Origin: an uncultured Pirellulales bacterium
GTDB taxonomy: Bacteria; Planctomycetota; Phycisphaerae; Sedimentisphaerales; Anaerobacaceae
Reading direction: 5' to 3'
NCBI GenBank assembly: GCA_964634165.1
Contig: CAZWKM010000002.1
Location: forward strand, 1-33,581
Length of the DNA: 33,581 bases
Positions 1-28,395 of this stretch are shown piece by piece (position 1 is the stretch's first letter; each line of letters begins with the position of its first letter). A program made the position numbers and the translations under genes. The notes beneath the pieces are model-generated. The model did not search any database, had not been told where the DNA came from, and was given only the letters and a program-made list of their open reading frames with translations.

Positions 1-3000
1 CTTTAGGGTCGGGGTCGGTAATTTTCTCAAGAACTTGGCCGAGAATCTGTATCCGGGGATTAAGGAATCCAGCAGCGGCGATGATTGCAGCCATAACGGG
101 ATTTGAGCCTCTTTGCGCGAAATAACCAGTTGCTTTATCATATGCCAATTCTCTCCGCGATTCGCTTTCGCTCTTTTTCTCTGCATATTCATAAGCACCT
201 TCGCGGGGCAGTTCTTCTGTAAGAGCAGAAGCATACCTGCTTCCAAGTATCCAATTTTTAATATCCAAAGGCTTGAGACCCAGTGCCACAAGCTGGCCTG
301 GTATTTCTTCAATTTTCTCTAATGTTGATAACTTTGTCCAGTTTTTGGGGGCTATATCTTGGGCCAACATATTACCGAATGATTGAACAACTGTACGATG
401 GCTGTCCTTCATCAACTCATCAAGCCTTTTGCTCATCAATTCCGTTGCCACTTTGCTTGCTTTTGATTTTCCGGTAATTCTATTAAGCACGCCTAGCGCC
501 AGATTGTAGGCGGGTATGTATGCCTGAGGCCCGCCTTCTGCCAACAATTGCCCTGTCGTGATGTCGCGGGGTATGTTTCTAACACCAAACGCCGGCTTTT
601 GCGTTTTTGTCCGTTTCCACGGGCGAGTCATTCCCATCAGCACCCTGGTGATATGCTTCGTTACATCGCCGGGTATTCTCTGCCGGGCGTACATCCTGAA
701 AATGTACGGGTCGGGAACTTGGAAAAAGTGGCGGTTCCCATCCTCTCCCCAGAGCGAAAGAACCCGGACGGCATTTGGTTTCTTCATCCGCCATATATCG
801 GTGTGGTTTTGACAAACTGCCACATCGTCCGGCTGAGTCGGCTCGTCGAGTTCCTCGACCTTCAACCCCGCTTGGTCGGCTTGCTGCTTGTTAAGGTAGT
901 CAGCTATGACAACTTGCATTTCGTGTTCTGTTAGCTTGGCAACCTTTTTTGGCTCTAAACGCAAGGGTATCATTAGACGATTCAGCAACATTCGGGCATC
1001 GAGGGGCATATCCTTTCGCTTATTTGCTTCCTCGGCCATCCTCACCATAGACCACGCAAACCTGTGCCAGTAGTAACTATCAAATGCTCGGCGGGTACGG
1101 AAGCGAACCGAATCATCCAGCGTTTTTAAGGGCAATGCTGAACCAAAAGCGGAGTATATTCCGCTGCTTTTTGCGCTTGTGATTCCACCCGCACCACCCG
1201 GCTTTCCTTCGATTTGACGCTGTAAGGGCCAATAATCTTCCCACGCCTTGATGATAGTGACGAACTCCCCTGGTGTTTTCTCGCCTGCCAACAAGGGCAC
1301 TAATAGCAGATGATTCATAAACTGATTGACTTCTTTGAAGTAGCCGTCCCATTCCGGGTGCGAGGACTCCTGCTCACGAATAAACTTCTCCAAATCAGCA
1401 GGCGTAAGACCTTCCGTCCGACCTGCGTACTCGTGTCCTTTCTTCTTGGCTCTTTCGAGAGAAGCCCTTGCCTGGCCGTAGGTGCAAAAATCTTCCCAGT
1501 CCTTCAATCCTACTTCGTGCTTGATGGTGTTCAGCGATTTGGGATACAATCGCATACTGTTTCCGTGTCCCGGATTCAGGTTCTCCGGCAGAGTAACCAC
1601 TTCTCGCAGCAAACTTAACTCTTGCTTTGAAAACCGCTCGAAGCCCTTGCCCGTTGCTTTGACAACAATACCATCACCTTCGCCCTTGGCCCCGTTTATC
1701 GCCGCATCAAACGCCTGTGGCACTCTAAGCAAGTCATTTCTTGCTGCGTCCGTGTCCGCCGGCGTATCCTCGATGTGCTTTTTCCAGTCCCTTGCCAATT
1801 TTAATTGTGAGCGATAGTCTTTGTTTATCCAGCTTTTAGCTACCCCATACACACCGAAAACATCCAAAAAACCGAGTCGGTTCTGAGCGGCAATCGCATT
1901 AAAAGTCCGCCGATGAACCCTGTGTACTATCATTGAGTCGCCAATCGCGTTTTGCAAAAGCCCCCAAGCCATATTCGAGACTTGCTCTGGCGTATTTATG
2001 CCCTTTGGCTTGTCGTGTACCTGAGTTTGCAACTGTTCCATCACCGGCCTTGACTTCTGGAACACATAAGCCCTGTGAGCATCTCGCAGACCGGCAAGCA
2101 GTTCCGGCCTTAATTCTTTGAGTACGCTCTCAAATTGCGCCTTTAAGGCGTCTGGTATCTTGCCGGGGTCGGTGATATACAATCTGACTAACTCCGCCAT
2201 ACCCTCTTCCGGTGTTTGCGCTGAGGCCATTGTGTCTGGGCCAGTGAGTTCGATGAGCATTTTGCTGATATGCGCAAACCACGCTGGGTTTTCGTCTCCA
2301 ATTAAAGCCGACAGAGCGTGCCCCGCCTCGTGAAAATTTAATTGCCACGTGCCGGATTTCGTTCGTATGGTATGCGGGCCTGGCTCAAAGTGGGCGGGGC
2401 TGCGCCTCGTCGTCTGCGTTTTGCCGACAAGCATCAGAGCTTTCACCTGCTCATTGACAAAATCGACTATCGAACGCAGACCAACTTTCTTTTTGCCCTT
2501 CTGTTTCGTATCGCGTCTGAGCTTGTCCAGCAAGCTCTTGCCTTTTTTCGTCTCCGGTGGTTCAGAAGAATAGGAAGCAGCGATTTCCTCGCTCTCCTCC
2601 GTTATCCTTGGCCGTGCTCCTTTGTGAATATTCAGAGCAGAAGTATCCGCCGAAGTTATGTCCCTGACAACCTTGTGGTCTCTCAAGAGCCGGCCAACAA
2701 CCGATTCAGCCGCTCGCCCTATCGCAAACCATCTCCGTTTGTACCGAATAACCTCATCGAGAAAACCATAGGATTGCAAAGCCGAAGCATAGTCCCGGGT
2801 CCCGGAAGGCAGAAGTTCGATTACCTTGTCTCCGCTTATCGCAGATTCTGTGAGTTGCCAGCCGTTGTCAAGTTCAAGAACTGCTCCGTCTTTCACCAGG
2901 GCGATTGTCTCACTTGCCGTTAACTCAACCAGTTTGTTGCCTATACCTAATCGCTGTCTAATCTGCGCCACTTCTGTTGTTTTCAGACCCAACCCGACAA

Positions 3001-6000
3001 TGCCACGTCCGTCCTTCAGAGTCGCTCGTTGAATTCGCTTATTACGCAGGCCGGAACGGCCCATAATCTTGTCGTAGATTGAGAAAATAGGCCCAGACAA
3101 AATGACAAATCGCTTTGGTCGGAAAGCGGGTGTTTTGGCGTAGGTGGTGTCCCACCACACCTTGGCCTCTCCACCCAAAACCTTCTCATATTTCTCGTGC
3201 AGTTCGTTCGTGCTTACTGCGTGCGTCTCAGCTCTGACGTTACGCAAGTGAAGAGCATTAGAAGAAGTCGCCAGTGGATTTTCGTTTTTCTGGACAGCGT
3301 AGATATGGCCACTTTTCTTATTCTTATAGAAACCTCTGGACGCAAAGCGAGTTGCTTGGTCAAAATTGATTTTGTGAACTGCTACATCGCCTTCAAGTTC
3401 ATACAGCTTTGTTTGGGCGCCTGATGCTTCGTCTGTATGGACAACGGTTGGTTCACCGACCACCTTGAGATTAGTAGCGTGAATTTGCTCTACGCCGAAA
3501 TCAAACGCTCCCGTCTCCTTCGCTCGCGCTATTATCTCCTGGTAATTGCCGTAGAATATCTCGAAGATTCCGTTCTGTATATCGACCGGCAAAGCCATAA
3601 TACGATTAAGGAAACGGTCAACGTTCTCTGTATTTTGTCGAGCCAAATCGCCTTCTTCGTTAAGCAATCCCATTTGCTCGATTACAGCACGGCCCACTCC
3701 TTGATTCGCGTATTCCCCCATCATTATACCGTTATAGGTTGCCGTCAAAGCGGCCACGCCATACGAGTCCGTTAAGTCCTCGACGTTAAACATACTGCCG
3801 CCAAGAGCACTCCGCTCGCCTTTAGTAATCGCGCCCAGGGCAGCCAGCCGCCTCGACACAGCATTCGTAAGCCGCATTTGCCCCGCTAGGTTGAGTGTCA
3901 CCGGCCTGATGATAGGAGCTGTCGCCTGAAACGACCTATGAACCCTGCCAAAAGATTGCATCTGCGTATCCGCTGACCACGATAACTGAAAGGCATAGAA
4001 AACCCTACGCTGCTGATTTTTTTTGGTCAAGTCGGCGTGCAAGCTGATGCCTGTCGAGCCAGCCCCCGAAATGATAGCTATCCGTTTCTTGCCCTGTTGG
4101 AATAATTCGGTCTCGTGTTCATTGAGTTGTGTTTGCTTAACTCCCTTGATTTTCCTGCGAACATATTTACCGTTCTCCATCCTGCGAGTACGGCCCGTGA
4201 TTTCAGCCACCCTGCCGGCCCCGAAATGTTCTATCAAAGCGTCAAGTGGGTTGGTAGGCAAACTCATATCTGCTATTTGCGCCAACAGTTCTTCTTGTTT
4301 GCGGAGATTTTGCCTATTTATAACCGGATTGCCCGCACCGTCAAGAATCCGTTCTCTGCGAGTTCTGCCAGTCTGTGGGTCAGTTACTTCCTCATACTGT
4401 TCAAGCGGAAAGTGTCTTTTCACCAAATCAACAAGCATTTGCCTTGGCGAAAACTCCATCTCATCAAGCGATACACCCTCCTCCAAAGCATCATTTACTA
4501 ATCGTTTCGTCACGGTTTCGTTGGTATTGTAAAGGTTGACAACGGCCGACCGGCCTTCCGACAAATCCTTTTCGATGGCCTTGACAACCGATGGTAGCTC
4601 GTACCCCATCATCAATTGCAAAAAGAACCGCTGCTGCGCAGAGTAGAAACTACTAAAATGTCCCAACGCCCTCCGACTGGCGTTTCTGTTGGCTTCCTCA
4701 AAAGCTTTGTTCAGTTCACCCCAAAAGTTCGCAATTTCATCAAATTGCTTTGTCTCGTTACCAGAGAGTCCGTATTCCAACGGTGCGTATTCCACGCCTT
4801 CGTAGCTGATAGTTCTGGCAACTACCTTGCCGAGCAGTTTGAGTTCACGCGATAACATTTCCATATTAGCCACGCCACCCTGCTGCATAGCATTGGCAAA
4901 AGCTATAAAGTTTGGAAACGCGGCCCTTTCCCCCCAAAGTCCTAACCGTTCAAGGGGGATAAGATGTCGTACTTCAGATGCACCTGTCGCGGACACATAA
5001 AGTATTCGGGCTTTCGGGAATAACCTTTGCAGTTCAATCCCCATATTACCTTGTTGCGTACCTTGCCCCGCAGTGTATCCGCCCCCTTGTGTTGTAGCGG
5101 CCGCGTTCTTCATCTTGTGGGTCTCATCAAAAGCTATCACGCCATCAAAGTCGGGGCCAAGCCAGTCGCATAATTGCTTAAATCGCTCCTTGCCTTTCGT
5201 GTAGCCCTTTGCCAGCATACCATAGGTGGTAAAGAAAACTCCCTCGTCTGCTGTTATGTTGGCGTTCTTATGAAACGGTTTCTGGTGAATCAGCTTTAAG
5301 GGTACACCGACGCCATCTTTATCTCGTTGAGCGTCCGCAACAAGCTGGTGACTGGCTGATATATGAACTGCTTTTTTCCGGCCTTGCTTCAAATTGTCAA
5401 GTATGACAGCGTAAATCTCGCGGCCTTTACCCAAACCAGTACCATCCCCTATCCAAAATCCCGCCCTTTTGCCGTCCGGCAGTATTGTCTGATGGGTTTG
5501 GCCAGCATATACGACAGCTTCTAATTGAACGTCCGACACCCTGCCTTCCGTGACGATTTCCTTTGGTAAATGATGTTTGTATGTAATATCGGGTGGCGTC
5601 ACAGACGACATTACCGTGGATTCGACAATATCGGCGGGATGCAGCTGCGAACCTTTCACGGTTGCCTTCTGAACTTGATATGTGCTATAAGGCGTCCCCT
5701 CCTCCACTTCGGAGGGCGTGGTTTCTTTTACGCTTTCTTCCGATTGCGTTTCTTCAATAACGGCGTCACTGTCCAGTCCCCAATCCGAATGTTTCTGCCG
5801 AATATTTTGATATATCTTTGCCAGATAAGGCCGAAACTTCTCGTCCATCCCCTCCATTATTCGTGCAGACCAGTCCGCGAAAGACCTTATCCCCGCTTCT
5901 GCGTACATCGCTCCGAGCTTAACGCCATCAAGCAGTAGGGCAGGGTCTATACCAGAGTACAATCCTTTTTTGCCGGTGAGGGTGTCGTTGATTTTCTTTT

Positions 6001-9000
6001 TGAGGCGATTTATTTCGGCTTGCTTTTCAGGAGAGAGGTGCTCGGTGAGCTTTTTCTTTACTCGTCTATTACCAAGCTCGCTAACTCCGCCGCCCACAGG
6101 GGGAGTTCCTTCTGACTCAACGGCAGGGATATTTCTTCTCTGTCCACTATCCGGTCCACCAGTTGGTCGAGGTTCCCCCGGCTCTTCCACAGGTCGTACC
6201 ACTCTTGGTCCGTGATTGGCACTTGTGTCGGCGGTTCCAGGTTCCCGTGTGGGTGAAGTACCACCTCCACCAGTTGCACCAACGGATTCCCCTGTCTTTG
6301 CGGCTCCCCCAACTCGGCCAGCAACTTCGCCGCCCTCGTCTTGGCTCGCTGTGCGTATCCGCTCATTTACATTCTCCTTAGATAAAGGCCCTAAAACTTT
6401 CAGAGCTTCCTGCGGCGACAGGTCTGCTCCTGTAACAATTTGGCCTTCACTTTTGGTCGCACCATCATTATCTATTATAACGATTTGGTTGCCAAAAGTT
6501 GTGCCAAATTTACCATAATCCTTGCCGGACATACCGATATTGGCCCGAACATTGTATTTTTCTTCGATTTTTCCCCACCAATCACGGAAATTGGCCCTGT
6601 CAAGGGCCATTCCTTGTCCAACAATAGCCACTAATCGCCCACCTTTTTTCAGGCGAAACAGCGCTTGCTCAACGTGCCTTGCACCGAATTTCGTTTTATG
6701 GGCTTTCACTCTCCCGCCAGTCGCCGAGAATGGAGGATTCATCACGATAACATCATACTCCTTGCCGGGTTCGAGTAGGTTATCGAGTTGCTCGGCATTA
6801 ACATTGTACGCCTTGAAGCCCAGCGACTCTAAAAGACTACGCCTTCGAGCATCAATCTCGTTTGTTTCCACCCAGGCGCCCGCTAATCGCATCAGGGTAG
6901 CGATGTTGCCTGTCCCCGCACTTGGCTCGAGTGCCGACATCCCCGGCTTGATAGCGGCTGCCCTGACAGCCACATACGCTTCTGCCGGCGGCGTACTGAA
7001 TTGCTGTAATTCGACTTGCATCTCATCCCGGCGATTCTGCCGTGGCATCCTGTCAGTGATAGCCAATAATTGTGCAAGAGCACTTTCCGGCCTTTTGAGG
7101 TCTATCCCTGACTCAGTGATATGTTTGTTCATCCCGGCTTCGACAGCATCGTAGGTATCACGAGCGTTGCCGGCCGCCGCTCCGTAAACTTCTCTGGCAA
7201 GAGCATTGACAACAGCATTGGTTATTTTGGTTTCAGGATTGTCCCGCAGCAACGCCGCTACCTTATTGACTACCTGCTCATACTGCTCGCTTTTGGCTTT
7301 GACGCCCTTGTTTTCCCCCTCTGCGGCGGGCTTGGCCTTCAAGCCCTTGCTTTTCGGAAAAGCGATTTCTTCTGTGCCGAACGCCATCTCGACAGCTTTC
7401 TTGACCGCATCCTCATAATCCCATTGCTCTATCCCAACCGGGCCTCGCTGACGGCGCAAGCCGCCTTTCTCGATTTGGACGTAGAAGCCATTCCCGTCGT
7501 TTTTGGCTACAACTGTGTATCGTTCCCCTTCCGATGTCGTGGCTTGCCCTGTGTTGTCCAGAGTAGTCTCGAAATTTTGCCTCGAAATCTTTACACCCTT
7601 GCTTTTCGGCGCCGCCGTTGCCTTTCTTCTGGCCAATTCCTCGACCGCCATCCTGTATGTCTCGGCCATCTCCGGCTCATCTGCCGTAACATCGGCGAGT
7701 ATCTGCAAGTGCTCGGTCTCAGCATCTCTTATCTTCGCGGCAATCTCCTCTGGCCGCTCTGCTACCGCCTCGGCAAGAGAAGTCGCGCCAGCGGGCGTCT
7801 CTGGGCCTGGAATCGGCTCTGTGGCGGGCGGTTGGCCTATCTCTCTCGCTTCGGCTTCCAGCCTTGCTTTCTCATCGTCCCGTAAACGTACTTGTCCAGG
7901 CGCTTGCCCTTCAATCCCTTCCGCCGCCCCTCCCGCAGCAATTTCCTGTGCAGCTCTTTCGGCATTTTCTTTCTCCTTCAACCGTTGCTCTTCATAGGTC
8001 AAAAGTCCAAGAGGGTGAACATTCATCTCTCGGCGCCTTCGCTCCAATTCCTGTTTGGCGACAACATCACCCTGCTCGGCCTTTTCTCTCAATTCAGCAA
8101 AATCGGCCTTCTCGGCTGTCCTTTGCTGAAACATATATTCCTCTTGGACCCGCTCAATCACCCTCTCGGTTTGCATCAACTGTTCTTGATTGTTCAACGC
8201 ATCCTTGAGCAATCCGGCGAACTTGCTGCGTTCCTCTGCAGACCAGCCGGCGATACCCAGTTCCTTGAGGTCTTTACGGCTCGGTTCCTTTTTCTCCGCT
8301 ATCCGGGCAGAAACACCTGGCGAGAGAGCCGCTACTTGCATAGCCCCTTCCGGCGTCAGGGCGACATCCTTAAACTTCCCCTTGTCCTGAATGTCTAAGC
8401 GTCCGGGATATGCCTTGCCCTGCATTTTCGCGGCTGCTCGGTTTGCAAGGCTAACCGTCGCACCACCGCCAAAACCTACAAGCGACATTGCTCCGGCAAC
8501 AACAAACTCTTGCGCCCGCTGGTCGATGAATCCTATAACACCATCCGGCCCGATTATGGGCTTGTCGTAAACCAACTTCGCAGTTACCGCTTGCCACGAA
8601 CCTTGCGTAATCTCCTCTGCTCCCTCGCCAACGAAGCCGAGCAGGACGTCTTTCGTCAAAGCAGCAGCACCTCGCTTTGCGACATACTCTCCCGCTTCTT
8701 TTGTGACTTTACGGCGTAGCGCCCGCCAACCAATCTTGCCGAGCTTCAGAGCTAACGCTGTCTGTGCAAACTCAAGAATTGCAGCTACTGACCCATAAAT
8801 GACTTTGGCTTGCTGGGCTTGCTCCTCGGTCGCCCCATCCTGAATTGCCTGCCGGTATGCCTCCTGCCCCTCGGCCTCGAACATAATCGCCATTGCTATC
8901 TGTGGCTGGCCTCCCGCTATAGCTACGCCACTGGCTATCATTACAGGCATTGACGGAGCAATCGCACTTGACAATTTGGTCGGGCTGGTAATTAAATCCC

Positions 9001-9337
9001 AGAAATTCTTAGGCTGTTCGTTTTGCCATTCCGGGTGACGTGCAATCAGGTCGTCAACTTTTTCTCCGAATTCCTCTCCGGGCAGCGTCCAGTTCATCCC
9101 CGCTGTTACATTTATCTCTTTCCTCATAGACTCAGGCGGCCCGACATACTCGAATAGGCCGGAAACGGCTTTTGCTAAGTTCAATCCCCCAATCCGCCAC
9201 GCATCTATGTTGGATTTCCAAAACCCCTTCTTCGCCTTCTCTTTTGGAGTGTATGGCTCTATTTGTTGGACAAGGTCAAGCAGCGATACTCTCTGAGGCG
9301 GCTCGACTTGCTCTGCTATGTCGGCAAGAAGGCCCAT
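1..9337 (-). CDS. Giant polyvalent virion-module protein, partial (more than 3,112 codons; 3' end beyond the window). Contains a methyltransferase, an Sbno-type helicase, an HExxH module and a long unassigned C-terminal region.
   Basis: Absent from the supplied ORF track because it has no stop in the window. The minus frame with codon first bases at coordinates = 1 mod 3 opens at ATG 9337-9335. An in-frame TAA lies just upstream at 9355-9353. The ATG overlaps the TAA of the upstream gene as TAATG. I hand-translated about 35 of the 156 sequence lines spread over 1-9337; all read as ordinary protein with no stop. The track lists no ORF in this frame and nothing above 102 aa on the minus strand in 1-9336, which requires this frame to stay open throughout. 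N-terminus: MGLLADIAEQVEPPQRVSLLDLVQQIEPYTPK. Last in-window residues: ...FLNPRIQILGQVLEKITDPDPK. Confidence 0.85.
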   Translation of the reverse strand, partial: MGLLADIAEQVEPPQRVSLLDLVQQIEPYTPKEKAKKGFWKSNIDAWRIGGLNLAKAVSGLFEYVGPPESMRKEINVTAGMNWTLPGEEFGEKVDDLIARHPEWQNEQPKNFWDLITSPTKLSSAIAPSMPVMIASGVAIAGGQPQIAMAIMFEAEGQEAYRQAIQDGATEEQAQQAKVIYGSVAAILEFAQTALALKLGKIGWRALRRKVTKEAGEYVAKRGAAALTKDVLLGFVGEGAEEITQGSWQAVTAKLVYDKPIIGPDGVIGFIDQRAQEFVVAGAMSLVGFGGGATVSLANRAAAKMQGKAYPGRLDIQDKGKFKDVALTPEGAMQVAALSPGVSARIAEKKEPSRKDLKELGIAGWSAEERSKFAGLLKDALNNQEQLMQTERVIERVQEEYMFQQRTAEKADFAELREKAEQGDVVAKQELERRRREMNVHPLGLLTYEEQRLKEKENAERAAQEIAAGGAAEGIEGQAPGQVRLRDDEKARLEAEAREIGQPPATEPIPGPETPAGATSLAEAVAERPEEIAAKIRDAETEHLQILADVTADEPEMAETYRMAVEELARRKATAAPKSKGVKISRQNFETTLDNTGQATTSEGERYTVVAKNDGNGFYVQIEKGGLRRQRGPVGIEQWDYEDAVKKAVEMAFGTEEIAFPKSKGLKAKPAAEGENKGVKAKSEQYEQVVNKVAALLRDNPETKITNAVVNALAREVYGAAAGNARDTYDAVEAGMNKHITESGIDLKRPESALAQLLAITDRMPRQNRRDEMQVELQQFSTPPAEAYVAVRAAAIKPGMSALEPSAGTGNIATLMRLAGAWVETNEIDARRRSLLESLGFKAYNVNAEQLDNLLEPGKEYDVIVMNPPFSATGGRVKAHKTKFGARHVEQALFRLKKGGRLVAIVGQGMALDRANFRDWWGKIEEKYNVRANIGMSGKDYGKFGTTFGNQIVIIDNDGATKSEGQIVTGADLSPQEALKVLGPLSKENVNERIRTASQDEGGEVAGRVGGAAKTGESVGATGGGGTSPTREPGTADTSANHGPRVVRPVEEPGEPRPTGGPDSGQRRNIPAVESEGTPPVGGGVSELGNRRVKKKLTEHLSPEKQAEINRLKKKINDTLTGKKGLYSGIDPALLLDGVKLGAMYAEAGIRSFADWSARIMEGMDEKFRPYLAKIYQNIRQKHSDWGLDSDAVIEETQSEESVKETTPSEVEEGTPYSTYQVQKATVKGSQLHPADIVESTVMSSVTPPDITYKHHLPKEIVTEGRVSDVQLEAVVYAGQTHQTILPDGKRAGFWIGDGTGLGKGREIYAVILDNLKQGRKKAVHISASHQLVADAQRDKDGVGVPLKLIHQKPFHKNANITADEGVFFTTYGMLAKGYTKGKERFKQLCDWLGPDFDGVIAFDETHKMKNAAATTQGGGYTAGQGTQQGNMGIELQRLFPKARILYVSATGASEVRHLIPLERLGLWGERAAFPNFIAFANAMQQGGVANMEMLSRELKLLGKVVARTISYEGVEYAPLEYGLSGNETKQFDEIANFWGELNKAFEEANRNASRRALGHFSSFYSAQQRFFLQLMMGYELPSVVKAIEKDLSEGRSAVVNLYNTNETVTKRLVNDALEEGVSLDEMEFSPRQMLVDLVKRHFPLEQYEEVTDPQTGRTRRERILDGAGNPVINRQNLRKQEELLAQIADMSLPTNPLDALIEHFGAGRVAEITGRTRRMENGKYVRRKIKGVKQTQLNEHETELFQQGKKRIAIISGAGSTGISLHADLTKKNQQRRVFYAFQLSWSADTQMQSFGRVHRSFQATAPIIRPVTLNLAGQMRLTNAVSRRLAALGAITKGERSALGGSMFNVEDLTDSYGVAALTATYNGIMMGEYANQGVGRAVIEQMGLLNEEGDLARQNTENVDRFLNRIMALPVDIQNGIFEIFYGNYQEIIARAKETGAFDFGVEQIHATNLKVVGEPTVVHTDEASGAQTKLYELEGDVAVHKINFDQATRFASRGFYKNKKSGHIYAVQKNENPLATSSNALHLRNVRAETHAVSTNELHEKYEKVLGGEAKVWWDTTYAKTPAFRPKRFVILSGPIFSIYDKIMGRSGLRNKRIQRATLKDGRGIVGLGLKTTEVAQIRQRLGIGNKLVELTASETIALVKDGAVLELDNGWQLTESAISGDKVIELLPSGTRDYASALQSYGFLDEVIRYKRRWFAIGRAAESVVGRLLRDHKVVRDITSADTSALNIHKGARPRITEESEEIAASYSSEPPETKKGKSLLDKLRRDTKQKGKKKVGLRSIVDFVNEQVKALMLVGKTQTTRRSPAHFEPGPHTIRTKSGTWQLNFHEAGHALSALIGDENPAWFAHISKMLIELTGPDTMASAQTPEEGMAELVRLYITDPGKIPDALKAQFESVLKELRPELLAGLRDAHRAYVFQKSRPVMEQLQTQVHDKPKGINTPEQVSNMAWGLLQNAIGDSMIVHRVHRRTFNAIAAQNRLGFLDVFGVYGVAKSWINKDYRSQLKLARDWKKHIEDTPADTDAARNDLLRVPQAFDAAINGAKGEGDGIVVKATGKGFERFSKQELSLLREVVTLPENLNPGHGNSMRLYPKSLNTIKHEVGLKDWEDFCTYGQARASLERAKKKGHEYAGRTEGLTPADLEKFIREQESSHPEWDGYFKEVNQFMNHLLLVPLLAGEKTPGEFVTIIKAWEDYWPLQRQIEGKPGGAGGITSAKSSGIYSAFGSALPLKTLDDSVRFRTRRAFDSYYWHRFAWSMVRMAEEANKRKDMPLDARMLLNRLMIPLRLEPKKVAKLTEHEMQVVIADYLNKQQADQAGLKVEELDEPTQPDDVAVCQNHTDIWRMKKPNAVRVLSLWGEDGNRHFFQVPDPYIFRMYARQRIPGDVTKHITRVLMGMTRPWKRTKTQKPAFGVRNIPRDITTGQLLAEGGPQAYIPAYNLALGVLNRITGKSKASKVATELMSKRLDELMKDSHRTVVQSFGNMLAQDIAPKNWTKLSTLEKIEEIPGQLVALGLKPLDIKNWILGSRYASALTEELPREGAYEYAEKKSESESRRELAYDKATGYFAQRGSNPVMAAIIAAAGFLNPRIQILGQVLEKITDPDPK
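2318..2332 (-). other. HEAGH (HExxH) zincin-like metallopeptidase motif within the giant ORF
   Basis: Hand translation gives TWQLNFHEAGHALSALIGDENPAW (first His is residue ~2336). An EEGMAELVRLY segment about 45 aa downstream could supply a third ligand Glu. This is a motif only; no fold-level evidence is available to me. Confidence 0.45.
3847..5590 (-). other. Strawberry-notch (Sbno)-type superfamily-2 helicase module within the giant ORF
   Basis: Hand translation gives FWIGDGTGLGKGREI (5417-5449), IAFDETHKMKN (DETH = 5117-5128), IAIISGAGSTGISLHAD (4031-4081) and LSWSADTQMQSFGRVHRSFQ (QSFGRVHRS = 3932-3958). From memory these match the diagnostic Sbno motifs GDGxGxGKGR, DEcHkaKN, StGiSLhAD and WSAd..Q.fGRtHRsnQ. 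Borders are approximate. Confidence 0.8.
6058..6366 (-). CDS. Candidate nested (overprinted) 102-aa ORF in an alternative frame of the giant gene
   Basis: This ORF is in the supplied track. Its ATG at 6366-6364 is preceded by AAGGAG (6379-6374) with a 7-nt spacer. Its translation (…ITDQEWYDLWKSRGNLDQLVDRIVDREEISLPLSQKELPLWAAELASLVIDE) is compositionally protein-like, unlike the other four off-frame minus ORFs inside the giant gene. It overlaps exactly the low-complexity Gly/Pro/Thr linker between the methyltransferase and helicase modules. Confidence 0.3.
   Translation of the reverse strand: MSGYAQRAKTRAAKLLAELGEPQRQGNPLVQLVEVVLHPHGNLEPPTQVPITDQEWYDLWKSRGNLDQLVDRIVDREEISLPLSQKELPLWAAELASLVIDE
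6458..7030 (-). other. N6-adenine-type (amino) DNA methyltransferase domain within the giant ORF
   Basis: Hand translation gives motif I LEPSAGTGNIATLM (EPSAGTGN = 6905-6928, residue ~804). Motif IV is DVIVMNPPFSA (NPPF = 6728-6739, residue ~867). This is followed by HVEQALFRLKKGGRLVAIVGQG. The order motif I then motif IV with ~55-aa spacing is typical of gamma-class amino-methyltransferases. Domain borders are approximate. Confidence 0.8.
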
Positions 9338-10410
9338 TAAATGACCCCCAATTTATGCAAGGCGTTGGCGATTACCTGTTCGTTTCCACTGTCAACGATG
9401 TATTGCCATTCCGCCGCCGTCTGCGCGCCGTATTCCTTGCGTACCCAATTGGCGTCGAAGTCTCCTGCCTTAACCTGCTCGATAATATGTTTGGCACGTT
9501 CGTCCAGTTTTTTCAAATCCACCTCGGCCACAACCTCTCGCTTTGCCGGCTTGACGGTTTTGTCGGTTTCAAGTTTGCTCAGGTGGCCTCCGCCTTCACC
9601 GCCGCCCCTCCCTTGGCCTCCGCCTTCACCGCCGGCCCTCATCCTCGCATATCTACCCATTATATTTGCAACCTGAGCTTCAACGGCCGCGTAGTCCGTT
9701 ATGTCAATGCCTTCCATAGTTTGCTTGAACATTGCTTTTAATGTATCAGTGTAGAGCTTGCCATACTCTGGAAAGCTAATCTCCCCCGGCAGTTCTTTGA
9801 CATTGCCCTTATCATCCATAATTCCCCTTATACCGGTTACGGGGTCGGTTACTATTCGGCTATTATATATCTCTTGCGGCTTCGGTTCATCGTGATAGAC
9901 CTGCGAGGGGGTAATAGAATGGAACTGCTGCTGTAACTGTCTTTCCGCTTCCTCTCCCTGCTCTGGCGTCCAATCCCCCTTCGACACCTGCTCTCGTACC
10001 CAAGCAATTGCGTCTTGAAGTTTACCCATCTTGTCTTTTTGTTGCTGAGTGTATTCCCACTTAAAATTGTCCCGTAAGATTTTCTGCTGCTGCAAGGCCG
10101 CTTCAAGGGCACGTCCGGGGGCCTCCTCATACTCTCGCATCCGAAACGCACGGTCGGCTTCCCTTCCTTCCTGCAAGCCTTTTGCTTCCTCGGTCCTCTG
10201 GTCAACGGCGCGGTTGTAGTAGCTCAGTCTCCCCTGCGCAAGTTCTTTCCGGTCAATCCTTTCCCATTCCCGCATACGCAATTGAGCGTTAAGCGCAGCC
10301 ATTCGTATGGCTCTGTCGATGTCTCGCTCGCGTCTCTGGCCTCGACCCGCCGTGTATGCAACGCCGCCCATTGCTTCTGCAGACGGCGCGTGTTTGACTG
10401 TAATAGGCAT
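9337..10410 (-). CDS. Coiled-coil-rich virion protein (internal/ejection-protein candidate), 357 aa
   Basis: Track ORF. TAATG overlaps with both neighbours. The sequence is rich in charged heptad-like segments (…RMREWERIDRKELAQGRL…) and has a GGEGGGQGRGGGEGGG linker. Its position between the tail fiber and the giant protein parallels the podovirus internal-protein block. Function is inferred from position only. Confidence 0.5.
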   Translation of the reverse strand: MPITVKHAPSAEAMGGVAYTAGRGQRRERDIDRAIRMAALNAQLRMREWERIDRKELAQGRLSYYNRAVDQRTEEAKGLQEGREADRAFRMREYEEAPGRALEAALQQQKILRDNFKWEYTQQQKDKMGKLQDAIAWVREQVSKGDWTPEQGEEAERQLQQQFHSITPSQVYHDEPKPQEIYNSRIVTDPVTGIRGIMDDKGNVKELPGEISFPEYGKLYTDTLKAMFKQTMEGIDITDYAAVEAQVANIMGRYARMRAGGEGGGQGRGGGEGGGHLSKLETDKTVKPAKREVVAEVDLKKLDERAKHIIEQVKAGDFDANWVRKEYGAQTAAEWQYIVDSGNEQVIANALHKLGVI

Positions 10411-16939: not shown

Positions 16940-17914
16940 TCAGTAAATCCGATTCATTGCTCTTTTCATCTCCTTTTTTACCGCATCCATATGCCCGACG
17001 CCGCCGTGTGCGATTGTGCCAGAAGATGTGTCGTATGCACAACCGTTGACAACCAATCGACCGGCACTTTGATACAAGTCATACGGACCAAGAGAAGGCG
17101 TGCCAGCCGCCAAAGTTCTTATAACACAATTATTCAGAACAACATTAGAATCTGCATTTGCTACATAAACTCCCAAAACGTAATCCTCTGCTAAAGCACC
17201 TGCAGATACATACACAACACAATTATTATAGGTAACATAACAAGCCGCTTGATGATACAGCCCATAAGCACTTACACCAGCAGCGTTACGCGGGATTACA
17301 TAGAACTGGCAGTTATCGAACACGCCGTTATCGCATTGATAAATCGCCCGGTAATCTGTAGATGTTGCGTGCTCTCCGGTCGAGTAAAAAATTGTATTCT
17401 CACAGACAAGCCGTTCGACTCCAGTGAAATTCGCCGCATCATATTGTCCTCGAATCCTACAATTAGAAATAAAGATGTCATCTGAACCATCAGCAGCGAG
17501 TTTAATACCATCCATATTGCCGTAGATGTCACAATCCTCGATAACGATATTCGTGCGGGCAACCGCTGTGCCATCAATCCCGTATTTGTCCGCCCCAATC
17601 GCCTCTATCGACAAGTTCTTAACGACACAATTAGAACCGATGTCGATACCATCGGCAGCGGCGGGTACGATTTTCGAGCCGCTCCGCGAAGTGCCTATCA
17701 AGGTCAGGGCCTTGGCGGATATATCGACATTCTCAGCGTAATCGCCCGGCCAAATGATAATCGTATCGCCCGCGGCGGCGGCTGTTACAGCCGCACCTAT
17801 CGTCAATTTCGCATCGGCGGCAAGGGCAATCGGATATTGCTGTGCGTGCCCGCCGTTGGCATCGTCTCCGGTTTTCGCTACGTGCCATACGTGCGCAGAG
17901 TCAAAAAGATTCAT
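16940..17914 (-). CDS. Right-handed parallel beta-helix (pectate-lyase-fold) protein; tailspike/depolymerase candidate, 324 aa
   Basis: Track ORF. The N-terminus WHVAKTGDDANGG…TIGAAVTAAAAGDTIIIWPGDYAENV is the classic beta-helix entry motif. It is followed by repeated N/C/I-rich coils (…NCVVKNLSIEA…IEDCDIYG…ISNCRIRG…). Confidence 0.7.
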   Translation of the reverse strand: MNLFDSAHVWHVAKTGDDANGGHAQQYPIALAADAKLTIGAAVTAAAAGDTIIIWPGDYAENVDISAKALTLIGTSRSGSKIVPAAADGIDIGSNCVVKNLSIEAIGADKYGIDGTAVARTNIVIEDCDIYGNMDGIKLAADGSDDIFISNCRIRGQYDAANFTGVERLVCENTIFYSTGEHATSTDYRAIYQCDNGVFDNCQFYVIPRNAAGVSAYGLYHQAACYVTYNNCVVYVSAGALAEDYVLGVYVANADSNVVLNNCVIRTLAAGTPSLGPYDLYQSAGRLVVNGCAYDTSSGTIAHGGVGHMDAVKKEMKRAMNRIY

Positions 17915-20948: not shown

Positions 20949-22010
20949 TTACTTACTGATGACCCAGTTGTTGCGCCGGTTCGAGCATATCGTCTGGTGT
21001 TTGTGGTCGAGATGTGCAACGAACACTCTATGCTGATTCGGTGCTTTGGCGAAATCGCCGAGTCGCATATTGTCGCCCTGCTTGGTGAGAGCGTGGAAAG
21101 TCATCATATCCAAGCCGTATACCGGGTCGCTCGTGTCACTGTCAAGCGATTCGGCATAGATGATTGGCTTTCTCTTGAAGACAATCTCGCCATCCGAATC
21201 TCTTTTCAAGCCCGTACCCGCCGTGTAAGGTGCAAGGTCTCTGCCGAGATTCTCATTCTGGGCCTCGCCGATGTTCTCGAAGCCTTCGAGAGTATCCTCA
21301 TTGCAGAGAATGATACGCCTGTCGCTTGAATCGCCCTCGAACTGCTTCATTTTCTTCGGAGACTTCCACTGGGTTCTCCGGTGCGCCCGGCGCATCTTCG
21401 TGATGAGGTCGGCCTTGCTGATGGCGGCGTAAGTGTCGGTGTAGTTCTTGAACTGCGGCACATTCGTCAAGTTGATATTGGCGATTCTGGTGAACCCTAT
21501 TGGATACCCGCCGTAGTGGCCTGTCTGCGCGTTCTTCACAATCCAGTATTTCAGGCCCCAAGGTGACAAGTCGTCCTCGGCGTTCGGAAGCTCAAAGAAC
21601 TTCTCTTCCATCGTCTCTGCCATACGAAGATACATTGCTCTTCGCCGTGGCAGGATGACATTGTTGATGCGCTCTTCCCCCCTGTTATCCAGAATCTCCG
21701 ACCTTGTATAGGCCAAAGAATCCGTACAGAGAGTGAAAAACAGTCTCATCTTCTTCAGGTGGTCAATGACCACAATGACGTCTTCATCATATTCGCCGAC
21801 GAAACGCGAACGTCCCCCGTGCTCGACCATCAGAGTCTCTTCAATCCCAACACCGCCTTTTTTGACGAGCAACCCGCCTCGCTGCGTCAGGAAATAAGGG
21901 ACAACGATGTAGTCGTGCAATTCCTGCGAAAGGTCTATAAACTTTCCGCGAGGAATGGTGTTGTAGGTAGTCGTCAGCAAATCACTTATGTCTTTGTCTG
22001 TGATTGGCAT
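20949..22010 (-). CDS. Major capsid protein candidate (HK97-fold, lambda-E-like impression), 353 aa
   Basis: Track ORF. It directly follows the scaffold gene, and its size is typical. The segment …LPRRRAMYLRMAETMEEKFF… is reminiscent of lambda gpE …YRRRRIIMQNMRDEE…. This similarity is from memory and was not aligned. Confidence 0.6.
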   Translation of the reverse strand: MPITDKDISDLLTTTYNTIPRGKFIDLSQELHDYIVVPYFLTQRGGLLVKKGGVGIEETLMVEHGGRSRFVGEYDEDVIVVIDHLKKMRLFFTLCTDSLAYTRSEILDNRGEERINNVILPRRRAMYLRMAETMEEKFFELPNAEDDLSPWGLKYWIVKNAQTGHYGGYPIGFTRIANINLTNVPQFKNYTDTYAAISKADLITKMRRAHRRTQWKSPKKMKQFEGDSSDRRIILCNEDTLEGFENIGEAQNENLGRDLAPYTAGTGLKRDSDGEIVFKRKPIIYAESLDSDTSDPVYGLDMMTFHALTKQGDNMRLGDFAKAPNQHRVFVAHLDHKHQTICSNRRNNWVISK

Positions 22011-23697: not shown

Positions 23698-25509
23698 TTA
23701 TCCCGTAGCTCTCATAAGAGAAGACATTTCGCTGTTTTGCGGCTTGCCGCCGAACAGGGCCTGTTGGAGTATTTGCGATTTTCCCTGATTCGTTGCGCCC
23801 GGCCTGTTTACTCTTTCATATCTCCGCGTAGTGACGGGAGCTTTCTGTGGCATCTGTCCGACAGGTTGTCCCTCACGCGAGGAATCGGCGTAGATGAGGA
23901 TGTCGTTGAGTTCCGGCAGGTTCCCCAACTTGGCTATGTTTCGGAAAAGGGCTTCCATGTCGATTGTCACGCCCTGCGCCTGCATTAAAGGAATTAAAGG
24001 TGTAACAAATTCGGCAAAAACAGTTCTAAGTCCCAGCAGCTTGGACTCCGGTGTCTGGTGTTGCATCGAGTAGGGTTCAATCAGGATGTTGTACTGAAGG
24101 AAATCGTCCTCCCTTTGCTCCGGCCCAAACGGCACTGTTATCACAACGTCCTCGTATCCCTTGACGCGCTTCGTTACGGGTAGGTTTATGTAGGGGTCGT
24201 TCCACAAGTAACTCGAAAGGTCTTCTACCACTCCCTGGGTAAAACTGAATGTTTCCTTCTGCATCTTCTGTATTCGCATCGATGCTGAAGCACTGAGGAG
24301 CCTGTCCTGGCCCAATGTCTCCGATTGCGGGCCTAACCCGCCGAGCATATCGAGATTGCCGGCCATATAGCTGAACAGGTCTTTAACTCCGAGGAAAAAG
24401 GCCAGAGTCTCCTGCGATATTCCCCCATAGCGATGTTCCTGGGCGGAAGCAGGGTTGTCCATAGAGACAGCTTCGCCGTCATTGGCGTCAATGACATGCC
24501 TGCCGTCTTTGCCGCTGCCCGTTTGAACGCCGAGGATTGTTTTTTCCCGCTCTGCCTGCCTGCCAAGTTTTCTGAAAAGTGCATTGGTGAGTTCGTGAAG
24601 GTCTTGCCAGAGCATAGCCGGGGCAAGCGGCATTGTGTTGTTCTCGATTTTGGAAAATCCGAGTTCGTGATACGGGCCTCGCTCCGGGCCGGCCCACTCG
24701 ATTATATTCAACACGTCCCCGATAGGGTCGGTGTCGTCGTCAGAAGCCTGACATTGTAGAATTAGCTTTTGCTTAGGTAGCCACAGGTCGAGACACCGTA
24801 TCGTTGCTCGGAATTCTTGTCTTTGGGTTGCCTGCCCCTCTGAAACACTATGGTCTTTTTCGATAGGAGGCTGTTCGTCTTGCGGAATCAGTTTATTGTG
24901 CACTTTTTCGGGGAATATCTGGAGTGCTTCATCTATGGTAGGATAATAGAAATTGCCTTTATACTGGGCATTCTCCATCTTGTCCACCGTCATATCGTGT
25001 ACCCAGTCATCCAGTGATATGTGGTCGGCAAACGGCTGTCCGCTGTCGTGGAGTACCCCTCCCACTTCGACTTGCGTCCGATTCAGGCCAACCTTGACTG
25101 TTCCCATCGAGAACATCGCACCAATCACTGCTAGTTCAAGTGTACCCCCGAGGTCTATTTCCTGAATTAGGTGATTGACTGCCAGTTCAAAGCGATTGCT
25201 TATTTCTTTGAGTTTTTTGTACTTGGTGGTGACAGATACTGCTGGGGCTTTGGCGACAAGACGCTGCAAATAGATATTCATCGCCAATTCGATGAGGTCA
25301 ACCGGGACTTTGTCGCTTGCTCCGTTTGAGTAATGACTTCCTACGTATTGGCGAATCAGTTGCATCCGGTTACCGCGGAAGGTCTTTAGAACCTTCCTGC
25401 TGTAGCCAACCGCCTTGGAAAGCTGAGCAACGTTTTGTGCGTTTTTTGGATTAAAACCCATCTTTTCCGCCGGTGGGCAAAAGAAATAGACAAGCCAGTG
25501 AGTCAGCAC
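23698..25509 (-). CDS. Portal protein, ~587-603 aa
   Basis: Track ORF with a GTG start at 25509; ATG 25461 (MGFNPKNAQN…) is the alternative start. The size and its position just downstream of the large terminase and upstream of the scaffold are typical of portals. Confidence 0.7.
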   Translation of the reverse strand: MLTHWLVYFFCPPAEKMGFNPKNAQNVAQLSKAVGYSRKVLKTFRGNRMQLIRQYVGSHYSNGASDKVPVDLIELAMNIYLQRLVAKAPAVSVTTKYKKLKEISNRFELAVNHLIQEIDLGGTLELAVIGAMFSMGTVKVGLNRTQVEVGGVLHDSGQPFADHISLDDWVHDMTVDKMENAQYKGNFYYPTIDEALQIFPEKVHNKLIPQDEQPPIEKDHSVSEGQATQRQEFRATIRCLDLWLPKQKLILQCQASDDDTDPIGDVLNIIEWAGPERGPYHELGFSKIENNTMPLAPAMLWQDLHELTNALFRKLGRQAEREKTILGVQTGSGKDGRHVIDANDGEAVSMDNPASAQEHRYGGISQETLAFFLGVKDLFSYMAGNLDMLGGLGPQSETLGQDRLLSASASMRIQKMQKETFSFTQGVVEDLSSYLWNDPYINLPVTKRVKGYEDVVITVPFGPEQREDDFLQYNILIEPYSMQHQTPESKLLGLRTVFAEFVTPLIPLMQAQGVTIDMEALFRNIAKLGNLPELNDILIYADSSREGQPVGQMPQKAPVTTRRYERVNRPGATNQGKSQILQQALFGGKPQNSEMSSLMRATG

Positions 25510-25802: not shown

Positions 25803-27698
25803 TCACCACAATTTTGTCTCCTTGAGCTTTTGTTCGTATTCTCTACGTCGAGCGGCATAGCAATTTTCGGGTACCGTTTCGCTCACTTCGGGTTGGATAT
25901 TGCCCAAAAGCTCAAGGGCTTTATTCGCAAGCGCATCGGCAATTACTCTGTCCCCGTGATTGTCCCCTGCCCCGGATGGGTCAACTGAGTTTGCCGCCGC
26001 GCTGTGTTCGATACTATTGCGAGTCGTGAAGATATAAGAAAGACATTCCTGATTAGCTTCGCTACTGCGCTGAATGAACGTCCTTCCTTTCAATGCCCGG
26101 CGATACGCTCCCAAAACGGATTTCTTCTCCTCTGTATTGAGAAAACAGCCCGGTATGTCGGATACTTTTTTGGCAAGCGTCTTTTCGTTGCGGCGATAGT
26201 AGATATTCCTATAACCCAATTTGATTACCGTGTCTCCGAAGATTCTACCCATCCCGGCTCCGTCCCAAATCATATATGCACTATTGAAATACTTGCACAA
26301 AGCAATGCACAGTTTTGCATATGCCTCTGGCATTATCCACGGGTTGGCGTACTCTGCTATCTTCTCTCCCGTCTTCAGATTGACAAACGTGGCAGCCGAG
26401 TTGCTTGCGCCCGTGCCGGCAGAAATGTCTGCACCGCACCCGACCGACAAGTCCTCTGGAAAATGACCATAAGCATCTGGATTTATCCATAATCTCAAAT
26501 GGCCGTTCTCGCCCGACACAAAATCTAACGGGTCAAGCGTGTCTTCATCGTATTCGAGAACTCCCTCTGAGTAGGGCGGCCTCACGTTTTCCTTCTCGAT
26601 TGCCTGAATCATATCCCCGTCAAAATACTGAAAGTCCGAGGCGAACGGGTCCATATCAAGCTCTTGCGCTATCTCCATCGGGTGAACCGCTCGGTCACAT
26701 TCGTTATCGTACCAGGGCGAACGCAACTTGCCGTCAAGTCTGAACGGGTACTCTTCCGGAAACACATAGCGAATCCCATTGACGACTACCGTCCCCTTGA
26801 AGTCCTTGTCGTGAATGACAAGTTTGTTCTCCCGGGAATAGTACAACCCTCTCGATTTGAGCGGGTGCAGCGACCAATGCAGTACCAACTTGCGAATCTT
26901 GCCTAAGCTCAACCGATAAAAGGCCGTCCCCGCCCCCTGGTGAGTCGAGTTAAACAGACGGCAGTGGGTCACGTCTCGCGTAGCCCGCAGCATACCGTCG
27001 CCGTCAGGAACCGCCGCAAATTCGTCCGGCAACATCGCAGTACAACGACCGCCTCTGGCCGCATCGCTGGTCGTTGTACATCCGCCAATAGTCGAACCGT
27101 TATCCAAATTGACCAAATTCAAGTGTACTTTGTTGTATCGAGGCTGCAAAAACTTCGGCAAGTGCTCTATCAAAAACATCGCCTTCCAAAACAACGCATC
27201 CGGGTCATCACTCTTGTCAACCAGATTTTCATTACGAGAAATCATCCTGAATGCTGTGTATGGGCGAAAAAGCCAGAACCAAACGAACACCGAAAGGTAC
27301 ATCCACGAGGCCCCCATATCCCTTGACTTCTCCGTCAACTCATCGAAACCAATCTCTATTGCGTCTCGTATCTCGTCAAAAGACACGTCCTGATACAGGT
27401 AAGTGATGAAGGGGATAACAGTCGATGCCGGCGTGAGTCGTGGGTCATACGTCATCGCAAACGTATTGATGAAAAACAAAAGGTCTCGCGAGCACATCCT
27501 CCATAATTGCTCCTGAACCTCTTTGTTGCCCGCCGCCTCGCGAATACATTTCGACCTGAACCTGATATTGCCCGCAAGCGTCTTATACCCCGGCCACTCT
27601 CGGCAGCAACGGTCATAAAACGGATACCGGCTCCGCAGCTTCTTCGCTCTGGTCGAGTATTCGGTCAAGCAAGTCAAGATTTGCTCTACCGTCATCAT
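25803..27698 (-). CDS. terL: Terminase large subunit, 631 aa
   Basis: Track ORF. It has a Walker-A-like LTEKSRDMGASW and a Walker B TAMLPDEFAAV. The length and its position before the portal fit a large terminase. Confidence 0.88.
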   Translation of the reverse strand: MMTVEQILTCLTEYSTRAKKLRSRYPFYDRCCREWPGYKTLAGNIRFRSKCIREAAGNKEVQEQLWRMCSRDLLFFINTFAMTYDPRLTPASTVIPFITYLYQDVSFDEIRDAIEIGFDELTEKSRDMGASWMYLSVFVWFWLFRPYTAFRMISRNENLVDKSDDPDALFWKAMFLIEHLPKFLQPRYNKVHLNLVNLDNGSTIGGCTTTSDAARGGRCTAMLPDEFAAVPDGDGMLRATRDVTHCRLFNSTHQGAGTAFYRLSLGKIRKLVLHWSLHPLKSRGLYYSRENKLVIHDKDFKGTVVVNGIRYVFPEEYPFRLDGKLRSPWYDNECDRAVHPMEIAQELDMDPFASDFQYFDGDMIQAIEKENVRPPYSEGVLEYDEDTLDPLDFVSGENGHLRLWINPDAYGHFPEDLSVGCGADISAGTGASNSAATFVNLKTGEKIAEYANPWIMPEAYAKLCIALCKYFNSAYMIWDGAGMGRIFGDTVIKLGYRNIYYRRNEKTLAKKVSDIPGCFLNTEEKKSVLGAYRRALKGRTFIQRSSEANQECLSYIFTTRNSIEHSAAANSVDPSGAGDNHGDRVIADALANKALELLGNIQPEVSETVPENCYAARRREYEQKLKETKLW

Positions 27699-28281
27699 TG
27701 AACTTTGTTAGATTCTCCACCTGTGATTTGCTTGGTATGATTCGAGGATAAACCTTCGTGAAAAAATCCACCTTGTTGTCATTGCTGTTCTGGATAAACT
27801 TCAAATGGGCATACGCGCCCGCACTCGGCGCATCCGCCGGCTTCACATCCCGTATCGCTATGTTGTTGTATATCCACGTCAAGTCCCGTATCGGGTCAAT
27901 CTCGACATCTTCCCCAAACTCCGACCGGTCCCGCAAAAAAGCATCTTCAGCCTTCGCCGCCCGCTCCTTTTCCTCCTTCACCCCCGGCGGCTCCGGTAAC
28001 GATATGGGCTCACCCTTCGACTTCCGTAGCAAATATGTGTCTATCCGCTTCTCCGCTATCCGTGTAGCAAGCCTATGGTCAATATAGCCCGTGTCATCCG
28101 TACACTCCACCCTGTAATATGACCGCAATCGCGTAAACGCCGTCCACACCTCCTGCTCACGATACGTCCGCTTCTTTATGTCGTATCCGTAATCCCGCGC
28201 AGCGATAAACTTCCCTACTCCACGGTCTGTTAAATCCTGTTCCGTCAAATCTGCCATACTAAAAGTAATCGGCCAATTCAA
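27613..28281 (-). CDS. Terminase small subunit candidate, 222 aa
   Basis: Track ORF. TTG 28281 has GAGGAG 5 nt upstream. It is the first gene of the late operon and overlaps terL by 86 nt. The assignment rests on position and size only. Confidence 0.45.
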   Translation of the reverse strand: MNWPITFSMADLTEQDLTDRGVGKFIAARDYGYDIKKRTYREQEVWTAFTRLRSYYRVECTDDTGYIDHRLATRIAEKRIDTYLLRKSKGEPISLPEPPGVKEEKERAAKAEDAFLRDRSEFGEDVEIDPIRDLTWIYNNIAIRDVKPADAPSAGAYAHLKFIQNSNDNKVDFFTKVYPRIIPSKSQVENLTKFNDDGRANLDLLDRILDQSEEAAEPVSVL

Positions 28282-28375: not shown

Positions 28376-28395
28376 GGTTCATCGTCTCTGCTTAA

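Follow-up and report, generated by a model that had tools for sequence, protein, structure and literature searches.

The stretch of DNA analysed here (hereafter the window; 33,581 nucleotides, contig CAZWKM010000002.1 from an uncultured Pirellulales bacterium) carries at its left end, on the minus strand, most of a giant phage gene. The encoded protein combines a DNA methyltransferase, a strawberry-notch (Sbno)-type ATPase of helicase superfamily 2 (SF2) and an HExxH motif that may belong to a zincin metallopeptidase. We assign it to the polyvalent proteins, a class defined by Iyer, Burroughs, Anand, de Souza and Aravind (2017, J Bacteriol, PMC5512222), and consider it probable that the protein is packaged in the capsid and co-injected with the phage DNA, where its methylase-Sbno part would protect the incoming DNA in the manner proposed for DarB of phage P1.

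Reading frame and full-length product

Translation of the minus strand from position 9337 to position 1 gave 3,112 codons without a stop; at a GC content of 51%, the chance of such a stop-free frame (about 0.953^3112) is negligible. An earlier inspection of the letters without database searches (the sequence-only reading) had proposed an unlisted giant minus-strand open reading frame (ORF) in the 28% of the window that appeared empty in the ORF track. This proposal was borne out: the region looks empty because the ORF lister leaves out frames that run off the source, and re-translation from ATG 9337, inspected for a stop or frameshift, stayed free of stops. Downstream of an in-frame TAA (9355-9353), the first possible start is the ATG at 9337-9335. 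It overlaps the stop codon of the upstream gene (TAATG) and is preceded by a GGGGG run, which suggests translational coupling with that gene. The N-terminal sequence MGLLADI is kept in the orthologs.

A homolog search retrieved the full-length protein P0001, which is 100% identical across the part encoded in the window and is encoded on three public contigs (two from JGI metagenomes and one from a Logan assembly). These contigs complete to 3,489 amino acids (aa) a protein whose full length had been given as unknown. One of them matches the window with 99.995% identity across 19.3 kb. The predicted polypeptide has a mass of 385 kDa, and its gene occupies about a quarter of the phage contig of about 43.5 kb. 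Among the orthologs, P0003 (3,454 aa) is collinear from end to end with 53% identity, P0002 and P0005 show 54-56% identity everywhere but in a linker, and P0004 has an identical Pfam domain set and 46% identity over the aligned N-terminal part. Methylase, ATPase and putative zincin retain their catalytic motifs in five of five orthologs. Because such conserved orthologs exist, the giant ORF is a real, selected gene, and an artefactual ORF is ruled out. A megablast search with the whole gene found no match among 50,697 deposited phage records, the set used for all phage-record searches below.

Domain architecture

The gene was divided into the following parts:

1-9337, minus strand: polyvalent protein gene, codons 1-3112 of 3,489; the remaining 377 codons lie past window position 1
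8165-9337, minus strand: N-terminal module (aa 1-391), all-helical, shared with P0028, P0029, P0039, P0200 and P0201
7229-8164, minus strand: variable linker (aa 392-703) in which charged residues make up as much as 41% (aa 400-500)
6338-7228, minus strand: helical lead-in and gamma-class N6-adenine DNA methyltransferase (aa 704-1000), from profiles and motifs
6038-6337, minus strand: Gly/Pro-rich linker (aa 1001-1100), Gly plus Pro 33%
5723-6025, minus strand: small helical domain (aa ~1105-1205), also seen in other polyvalent proteins of the methylase-helicase type
2648-5710, minus strand: Sbno-type SF2 ATPase unit with C-terminal extension (aa 1210-2230), matching AAA_34 and Helicase_C_4
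2-2524, minus strand: in-window part (aa 2272-3112) of the C-terminal module (whole module about 1,200 aa, aa 2272-3489), with HEAGH motif and helical body

The order of the domains, like the comparison with polyvalent proteins on the DarB paradigm, had been anticipated in the sequence-only reading and is backed by profiles, homologs and a structure model. A profile check recovered both predicted enzymes, namely the methyltransferase (marginally with Pfam MTS, strongly with PHROG) and the Sbno helicase. The charged region and the Gly/Pro-rich linker described in that reading were also found, the former as the stretch at aa 400-500 and the latter by its composition.

The methyltransferase, which had been placed at 6458-7030 from the motifs EPSAGTGN...NPPF, was matched by Pfam MTS at aa 807-911 (E 4e-5), barely over the cut-off (23.8 versus 23 bits), and by PHROG DNA-methyltransferase families with E values of 1.6e-23 to 4e-16. 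Its motifs are QQFSTPP (aa 778), EPSAGTG (aa 804) and NPPF (aa 867). The gamma-class N6-adenine methylase of the polyvalent methylase-helicase dyad is defined as EcoKI/TaqI-like, with an N-terminal TP motif and NPP(Y/F) (Iyer et al. 2017, PMC5512222). The motifs found here fit this definition. PADLOC matched mad2 (1.9e-13) and an orphan methyltransferase, in the methylase domain only, and an NCBIfam scan yielded sub-threshold methylase matches only. The lead-in (aa 704-775) aligns with the equivalent region of other dyad proteins and has an LPD36-like position, LPD36 being a domain with a GxGU motif that lies N-terminal to the dyad methylase (PMC5512222); in the alignment, the segment GGTRGxG of the relatives reads YGAAAGNA here. 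In tblastn searches the methylase domain was the sole part of the protein that matched deposited phages.

For the ATPase, Pfam AAA_34 matched aa 1233-1533 (E 1.8e-102; 342.8 bits, cut-off 27) and Helicase_C_4 matched aa 1696-1950 (E 6e-73; 246.3 bits, cut-off 30.5), while the SBNO alpha/beta domain stayed under its cut-off (14 versus 24 bits). These Pfam matches establish the identity of the Sbno helicase that had been assigned to 3847-5590; the span had been drawn too narrowly, as the conserved unit covers 2648-5710. Walker A (GDGTGLGKGRE, aa 1297), DETH (aa 1404) and motif VI (FGRVHRS, aa 1796) are intact and kept in the orthologs, and the Sbno block is conserved in P0006-P0024. For the small helical domain in front of it, phrog_10089 ('DarB-like antirestriction') gave a match with E 4.7e-14 (aa 1105-1225), and aa 1126-1180 gave blastp matches to many polyvalent proteins. 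Comparison of the methylase-Sbno dyad with solved structures by sequence revealed nothing significant.

With tblastn, the Sbno unit was detected on 553 plasmid records, of which 303 are predicted to be conjugative, and no phage record gave a match. The unit nonetheless occurs in at least 14 metagenomic clusters of proteins with the C-terminal module. Given 553 plasmid records versus no phage record, the phage-borne Sbno appears to be a module common to this phage and conjugative elements, and the distribution suggests that plasmids and phages have exchanged weaponry. Sbno/methyltransferase proteins of conjugative plasmids are homologous to aa 704-2230 as a unit, with 33-36% identity over more than 90% of the Sbno part. 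ArdC-N and primase domains occur in some of the metagenomic relatives. Unlike the giant gene, the plasmid genes are not adjacent to virion genes, and we know of no plasmid Sbno protein that carries the phage N- and C-terminal modules.

The C-terminal module begins with the HEAGH motif, which had been noted before and was found at aa 2336-2340 (window 2318-2332), followed by EEGMAE at aa 2377. Of 19 family members spanning this region, 17-19 keep HExxH and the downstream E-G-x-A-E. The stretch of at least 780 further residues in which nothing had been recognised turned out to belong to this large conserved module, which includes LPD38 (PF18857; aa 3175-3308, outside the window; 31.6 bits, cut-off 27). 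LPD38 was also matched in the ortholog P0004 (34.9 bits). An exhaustive phmmer search with a 1,200-aa query found the module in 341 representative proteins at E ≤ 1e-3 and in 169 at E ≤ 1e-30. In the collected members (about 1,000-5,250 aa) it is always C-terminal, with a median distance of 18.5 residues between its end and that of the protein, and some proteins (P0049, P0057, P0064 and P0072) consist of it alone. The long members number 115, of which 93 are otherwise unlike the giant protein, 20 have the methylase and 14 have Sbno. C-module proteins from Phycisphaerae prophages contain a classical SNF2/ResIII helicase in place of Sbno.

An AlphaFold2 (AF2) model of the C-terminal module from a 34-sequence alignment reached a predicted local distance difference test score (pLDDT) of 82 and a predicted template-modelling score (pTM) of 0.80. 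It is mostly helical, and at its start three strands precede the HExxH helix; the zincin of the polyvalent class is described as an HExxH helix and a downstream Glu helix after a three-stranded sheet (PMC5512222). In the model, the hydrophobic helices of the module sit inside a soluble helical bundle. Neither the profile compared with sequences of solved structures nor Foldseek compared with the Protein Data Bank (PDB) gave anything significant, the top Foldseek match being anthrax lethal factor, a zincin (E 0.4, probability 0.91). Among the predicted viral structures of BFVD we obtained 55 matches at E ≤ 1e-3, the best with E 3e-22 and a template-modelling score of about 0.5 over 1,100-1,300 columns. 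In every case the match was to a C-terminal piece of a protein named 'large polyvalent protein associated domain-containing'; Escherichia phage PTXU04, Ralstonia phage Alix and Cellulophaga phage phi46:3 are among the phages concerned. With tblastn, neither the N-terminal nor the C-terminal module matched any of the phage records.

Right before the putative zincin, at aa ~2260-2290 (window ~2470-2560, minus strand), we observed a conserved leader of the form (Y/F)xxEPAETKxGxKLLxxLxxD..KKVGLRSIV, which is also present in the distant C-module proteins P0050, P0055, P0025 and P0053. It could represent an autoprocessing or docking site.

The N-terminal module contains three hydrophobic Ala/Gly-rich helices according to hydropathy (aa 122-140, 179-197 and 279-297), which places the hydrophobic, Ala/Gly-rich N-terminal region of the sequence-only reading within aa 122-297. 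In the whole protein there are five hydrophobic helices, all within the N- and C-terminal modules. Conserved polar motifs of the N-terminal module are EGQEAY, GATEEQA and EGxEExxQGxWQ. The module also occurs in giant proteins without the enzymatic middle, namely P0028 (2,005 aa, without methylase or helicase), P0029 and P0039. A word-index homolog search with it returned two proteins only, no Pfam or PHROG model matched it, and Foldseek with its model gave no significant matches. The centre of the adjoining charged linker (aa ~432-668; window ~7330-8040, minus strand) could not be aligned even with orthologs whose identity in the rest of the protein is 53-56%, and it appears to be a hypervariable or replaced segment within a conserved giant gene.

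Comparison with known systems

According to the 2017 description (PMC5512222), the class includes a methylase-helicase dyad with DarB as the archetype, and Sbno-type ATPases were noted in such dyads 'in a few instances'. The zincin is assigned a processing role, LPD38 is a phage-only domain, the genes lie beside late genes, and injection with the DNA is the predicted role. In the giant protein, at least two disparate activities (methyltransferase, Sbno ATPase and the HExxH zincin motif) are joined in one polypeptide. An SF2 helicase-like module lies C-terminal to the methylase, as the minor Sbno variant; the phage-type LPD38 is present; and the gene is the last of an operon with terminase and major head protein genes. 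The protein thus resembles the class in its several unrelated enzymes, dyad, HExxH motif, LPD38 and late-gene neighbourhood, and differs from typical members in its rarer Sbno helicase, the absence of MuF and a likely planctomycete host. As every element of the architecture is covered by the 2017 description, we regard the protein as a member of the class already described; it extends the existing picture of polyvalent proteins and is not a new kind of system. Two less ordinary features stand out, the plasmid-type Sbno unit and the likely host. The view that such a protein at the end of a virion operon is not a textbook arrangement had to be given up, the class having been described in 2017 and the giant genes of phages phi24B and phiC725A being similarly placed.

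DarB (2,255 aa), the head-packaged antirestriction protein of P1, likewise joins an N6-adenine methylase and, behind it, an SF2 ATPase in a single large polypeptide, and its proposed role is the protection of incoming DNA in cis. P1 is a myovirus, and the packaging of DarB is helped by other Dar proteins. In the Shiga toxin (Stx) phage phi24B, the gene vb_24B_48 (2,807 aa) is the last on the genome map, and our C-module profile matched its protein over its last ~500 aa (E 3.9e-13). According to a 2026 preprint, mass spectrometry showed phi24B gp47 (2,811 aa; LPD5, LPD1, LPD38 and MuF-C peptidase) to be an abundant virion component, although it is not visible in cryo-electron microscopy; the authors propose it to be a capsid-packaged ejection protein with a conduit role (bioRxiv 10.64898/2026.04.10.717836). 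Both cases share a temperate phage, a giant gene last on the map, LPD38 and a metallopeptidase, which is putative in the protein described here. The cargo of gp47 differs (LPD5, LPD1 and MuF-C), and the preprint mentions no methylase or helicase.

Pseudomonas phage phiC725A (Hollowayvirus), which has an integrase and an att site, encodes late in its virion block a 3,787-aa 'putative internal virion polymerase'. Its methylase domain is homologous to that of the giant protein (42% identity over 149 aa), and the N-termini of the two proteins resemble each other weakly (pairwise E 0.015). Sbno is absent from the phiC725A protein, the C-terminal module is not detectable (profile E 2), and LPD23 and LPD3 are present. 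Lysis and tail-fibre genes separate the giant gene of phiC725A from the integrase, whereas the giant gene described here nearly adjoins it. The virion RNA polymerase of phage N4, gp50, is comparable in being a protein of ~3,500 aa that resides in a podovirus capsid and is injected, and a zincin domain has been ascribed to it (Iyer et al. 2017, PMC5512222). Neither Pfam nor PHROG detected an RNA polymerase domain in our protein, and Foldseek related it to N4 gp50 structures (9pnt and 9pnr) with a probability of 0.02-0.04, which is not meaningful. A virion RNA polymerase, as the phiC725A gene is annotated, was rejected since no polymerase domain was found.

Proposed function and alternatives

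We propose that late in infection the single polypeptide would be made and packed in the capsid, and that in the next infection it would leave the virion together with the DNA. The N- and C-terminal modules would form a packaging and ejection 'chassis' with the methylase-Sbno unit as cargo between them, and their hydrophobic helices may engage the envelope. The Sbno motor could then track along the entering phage DNA while the methylase modifies it in cis, and this methylation would shield the DNA from restriction. Processing of the polyprotein into functional pieces may fall to the zincin.

Several points weigh against this proposal. Its packaging, injection, processing and anti-restriction steps are ones that we infer, and the methylase could have a target other than incoming phage DNA. 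The DarB-like PHROG similarity (E 4.7e-14) is confined to the helical domain of ~120 aa, and the helicase of DarB belongs to a different, SWI2/SNF2-related family (PMC5512222), in contrast to Sbno here. The link to phi24B is confined to the distal half of the C-terminal module; gp47 and vb_24B_48 were equated by size and because the latter is the sole gene of that length in the record, and the ejection of gp47 was itself deduced by the authors of the preprint. As to the terminal modules, the AF2 model of the N-terminal one is poor (pLDDT 53), the resemblance of this module to other phage proteins falls short of significance and is at most suggestive, and the hydrophobic helices are marginal (Kyte-Doolittle values of 1.6-1.8). 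For the zincin, no Pfam peptidase model matched, and the similarity to lethal factor did not go beyond E 0.4.

The alternative that holds up best, while still unlikely, is a mainly structural ejection or conduit protein, in which the terminal modules would form an envelope channel, the zincin would digest cell-wall or envelope proteins and the enzymes would be secondary. Proteins that build such envelope channels are known as gp14, gp15 and gp16 of T7 and as the ejection proteins of P22. The restriction of all five hydrophobic helices to the terminal modules would be in line with a channel, as would a C-terminal module that is conserved and obligatory and even forms stand-alone proteins, while the cargo is variable or absent. 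Moreover, the phi24B authors propose a conduit role for gp47, and PHROG and Pfam scans detected no tape-measure or other ejection-protein family in the operon here. However, AF2 places the hydrophobic helices within a soluble bundle, and no solved ejection protein was matched by sequence or fold. A conduit role would also be compatible with the co-injection of a protective enzyme, from which it differs in emphasis only.

We consider it rather improbable that the protein is not packaged at all and acts in the producing cell or from the prophage, methylating progeny or prophage DNA or remodelling host DNA. Methylase-Sbno proteins are indeed common on plasmids without a virion context (the 553 records), the PADLOC matches are methylases, and the gene adjoins the integrase at the prophage end, a frequent site of morons. 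Yet the gene is co-oriented and translationally coupled with virion genes, LPD38 and the C-terminal module are confined to phage-type proteins, a homolog of the module was equated with the virion-detected gp47, and a fusion of 3,489 aa would be implausibly costly for a housekeeping methylase. Least credible of all is prophage defence or superinfection exclusion by a single-polypeptide enzyme resembling type ISP restriction-modification or by a DISARM/BREX-like system: defence systems too pair a methylase with an SF2 helicase, and hosts may capture polyvalent proteins against incoming elements (PMC5512222), but this option was rejected because Pfam found no nuclease, PLD or other effector domain, PADLOC returned methylase-domain matches only and no system-specific helicase or effector model, and the gene is part of the late operon, outside any lysogeny module.

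Genomic context and likely host

The giant gene ends a co-oriented late operon. Further features of the window are:

9337-10410, minus strand: upstream 357-aa gene of the late operon; order kept in L001-L003
10410-27698, minus strand: upstream late (virion) genes, several unassigned
16940-17914, minus strand: right-handed beta-helix protein, 324 aa (Pfam Beta_helix, 4.7e-11)
20949-22010, minus strand: major head protein (PHROG, 8.9e-6)
23698-25509, minus strand: putative portal, a guess by size and position only
25803-27698, minus strand: large terminase (PHROG, 6.7e-16; Pfam Terminase_6N)
31782-33168, plus strand: AAA ATPase (217 aa), then serine recombinase (Resolvase, 4.5e-28), from profile matches

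Among 20 neighbouring genes scanned with PHROG and Pfam, most were without a family. The putative portal had no match in PHROG, Pfam, the PDB or the phage records (tblastn), and tblastn found none for the major head protein among the phage records either. With these two proteins unmatched and most late genes without a family, the phage represents a very divergent lineage. Two tail-region proteins compared with solved structures by sequence gave nothing significant. The beta-helix protein is a candidate tailspike or depolymerase.

On longer contigs a small ORF and then a tyrosine integrase come after the giant gene, and beyond the integrase lie RecT, PD-(D/E)XK, SMC-like and SNF2 genes. The serine recombinase of the window together with the tyrosine integrase (contig L001) indicates that the element carries two different recombinases. 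The ortholog P0004 and the C-module protein P0053 are encoded at the equivalent position in other phage contigs. In L002, an indel (window 10058-10111; L002 9258-9281) splits the 357-aa upstream gene into ORFs of 118 and 216 aa. In L005 (807-5456), a related phage with a 2,043-aa C-module protein has a second large protein (1,549 aa, faint ART-PolyVal match) in one late operon with it, so some relatives may carry two polyvalent proteins. By coordinate arithmetic, the right end of the window (28281-33581) passes the start of the matching 43.5-kb contig, whose position 1 corresponds to about window position 28363. A circular permutation of that contig (Ga0111034_1012853) was considered and discarded, blastn of the right end to its far part remaining without a match; the window thus comes from a differently bounded assembly of the same phage.

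A genome scan for the C-terminal module, with a profile built from a 9-sequence alignment, yielded six genome loci (L008-L013), all six from Planctomycetota (Phycisphaerae, Anaerohalosphaeraceae, Sedimentisphaerales and Pirellulales). They comprise metagenome-assembled genomes and 'Anaerohalosphaeraceae bacterium U12dextr', possibly a cultured isolate. Since all six loci are planctomycetal, the host of the phage is probably a planctomycete.

Significance

The large share of the phage contig given to this one gene shows how far phages go to bring ready-made counter-defence enzymes into the next host, and the Sbno methylase-motor unit, seen until now on plasmids, travels on a phage chassis as well. 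The genome-borne relatives all point to Planctomycetota, a phylum for which, to our knowledge, few phages are known. The C-terminal module, for which the model is good (pLDDT 82) and solved structures offered no counterpart (Foldseek versus PDB), could mark injected giant proteins across many phages and serve in a systematic search for them and their cargo. Going one step further, we tentatively suggest, as a possibility less secure than co-injection itself, that the N- and C-terminal modules serve short-tailed temperate phages as a general, modular platform for the delivery of cargo, akin to the Rhs/PAAR cargo carriers of secretion systems, and that this lineage, probably one of planctomycete phages, captured a plasmid methylase-Sbno unit. 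If so, nearly any enzyme could be spliced between the modules for injection with the genome, and the giant gene would document the direct transfer of an injected counter-defence weapon from plasmid to phage.

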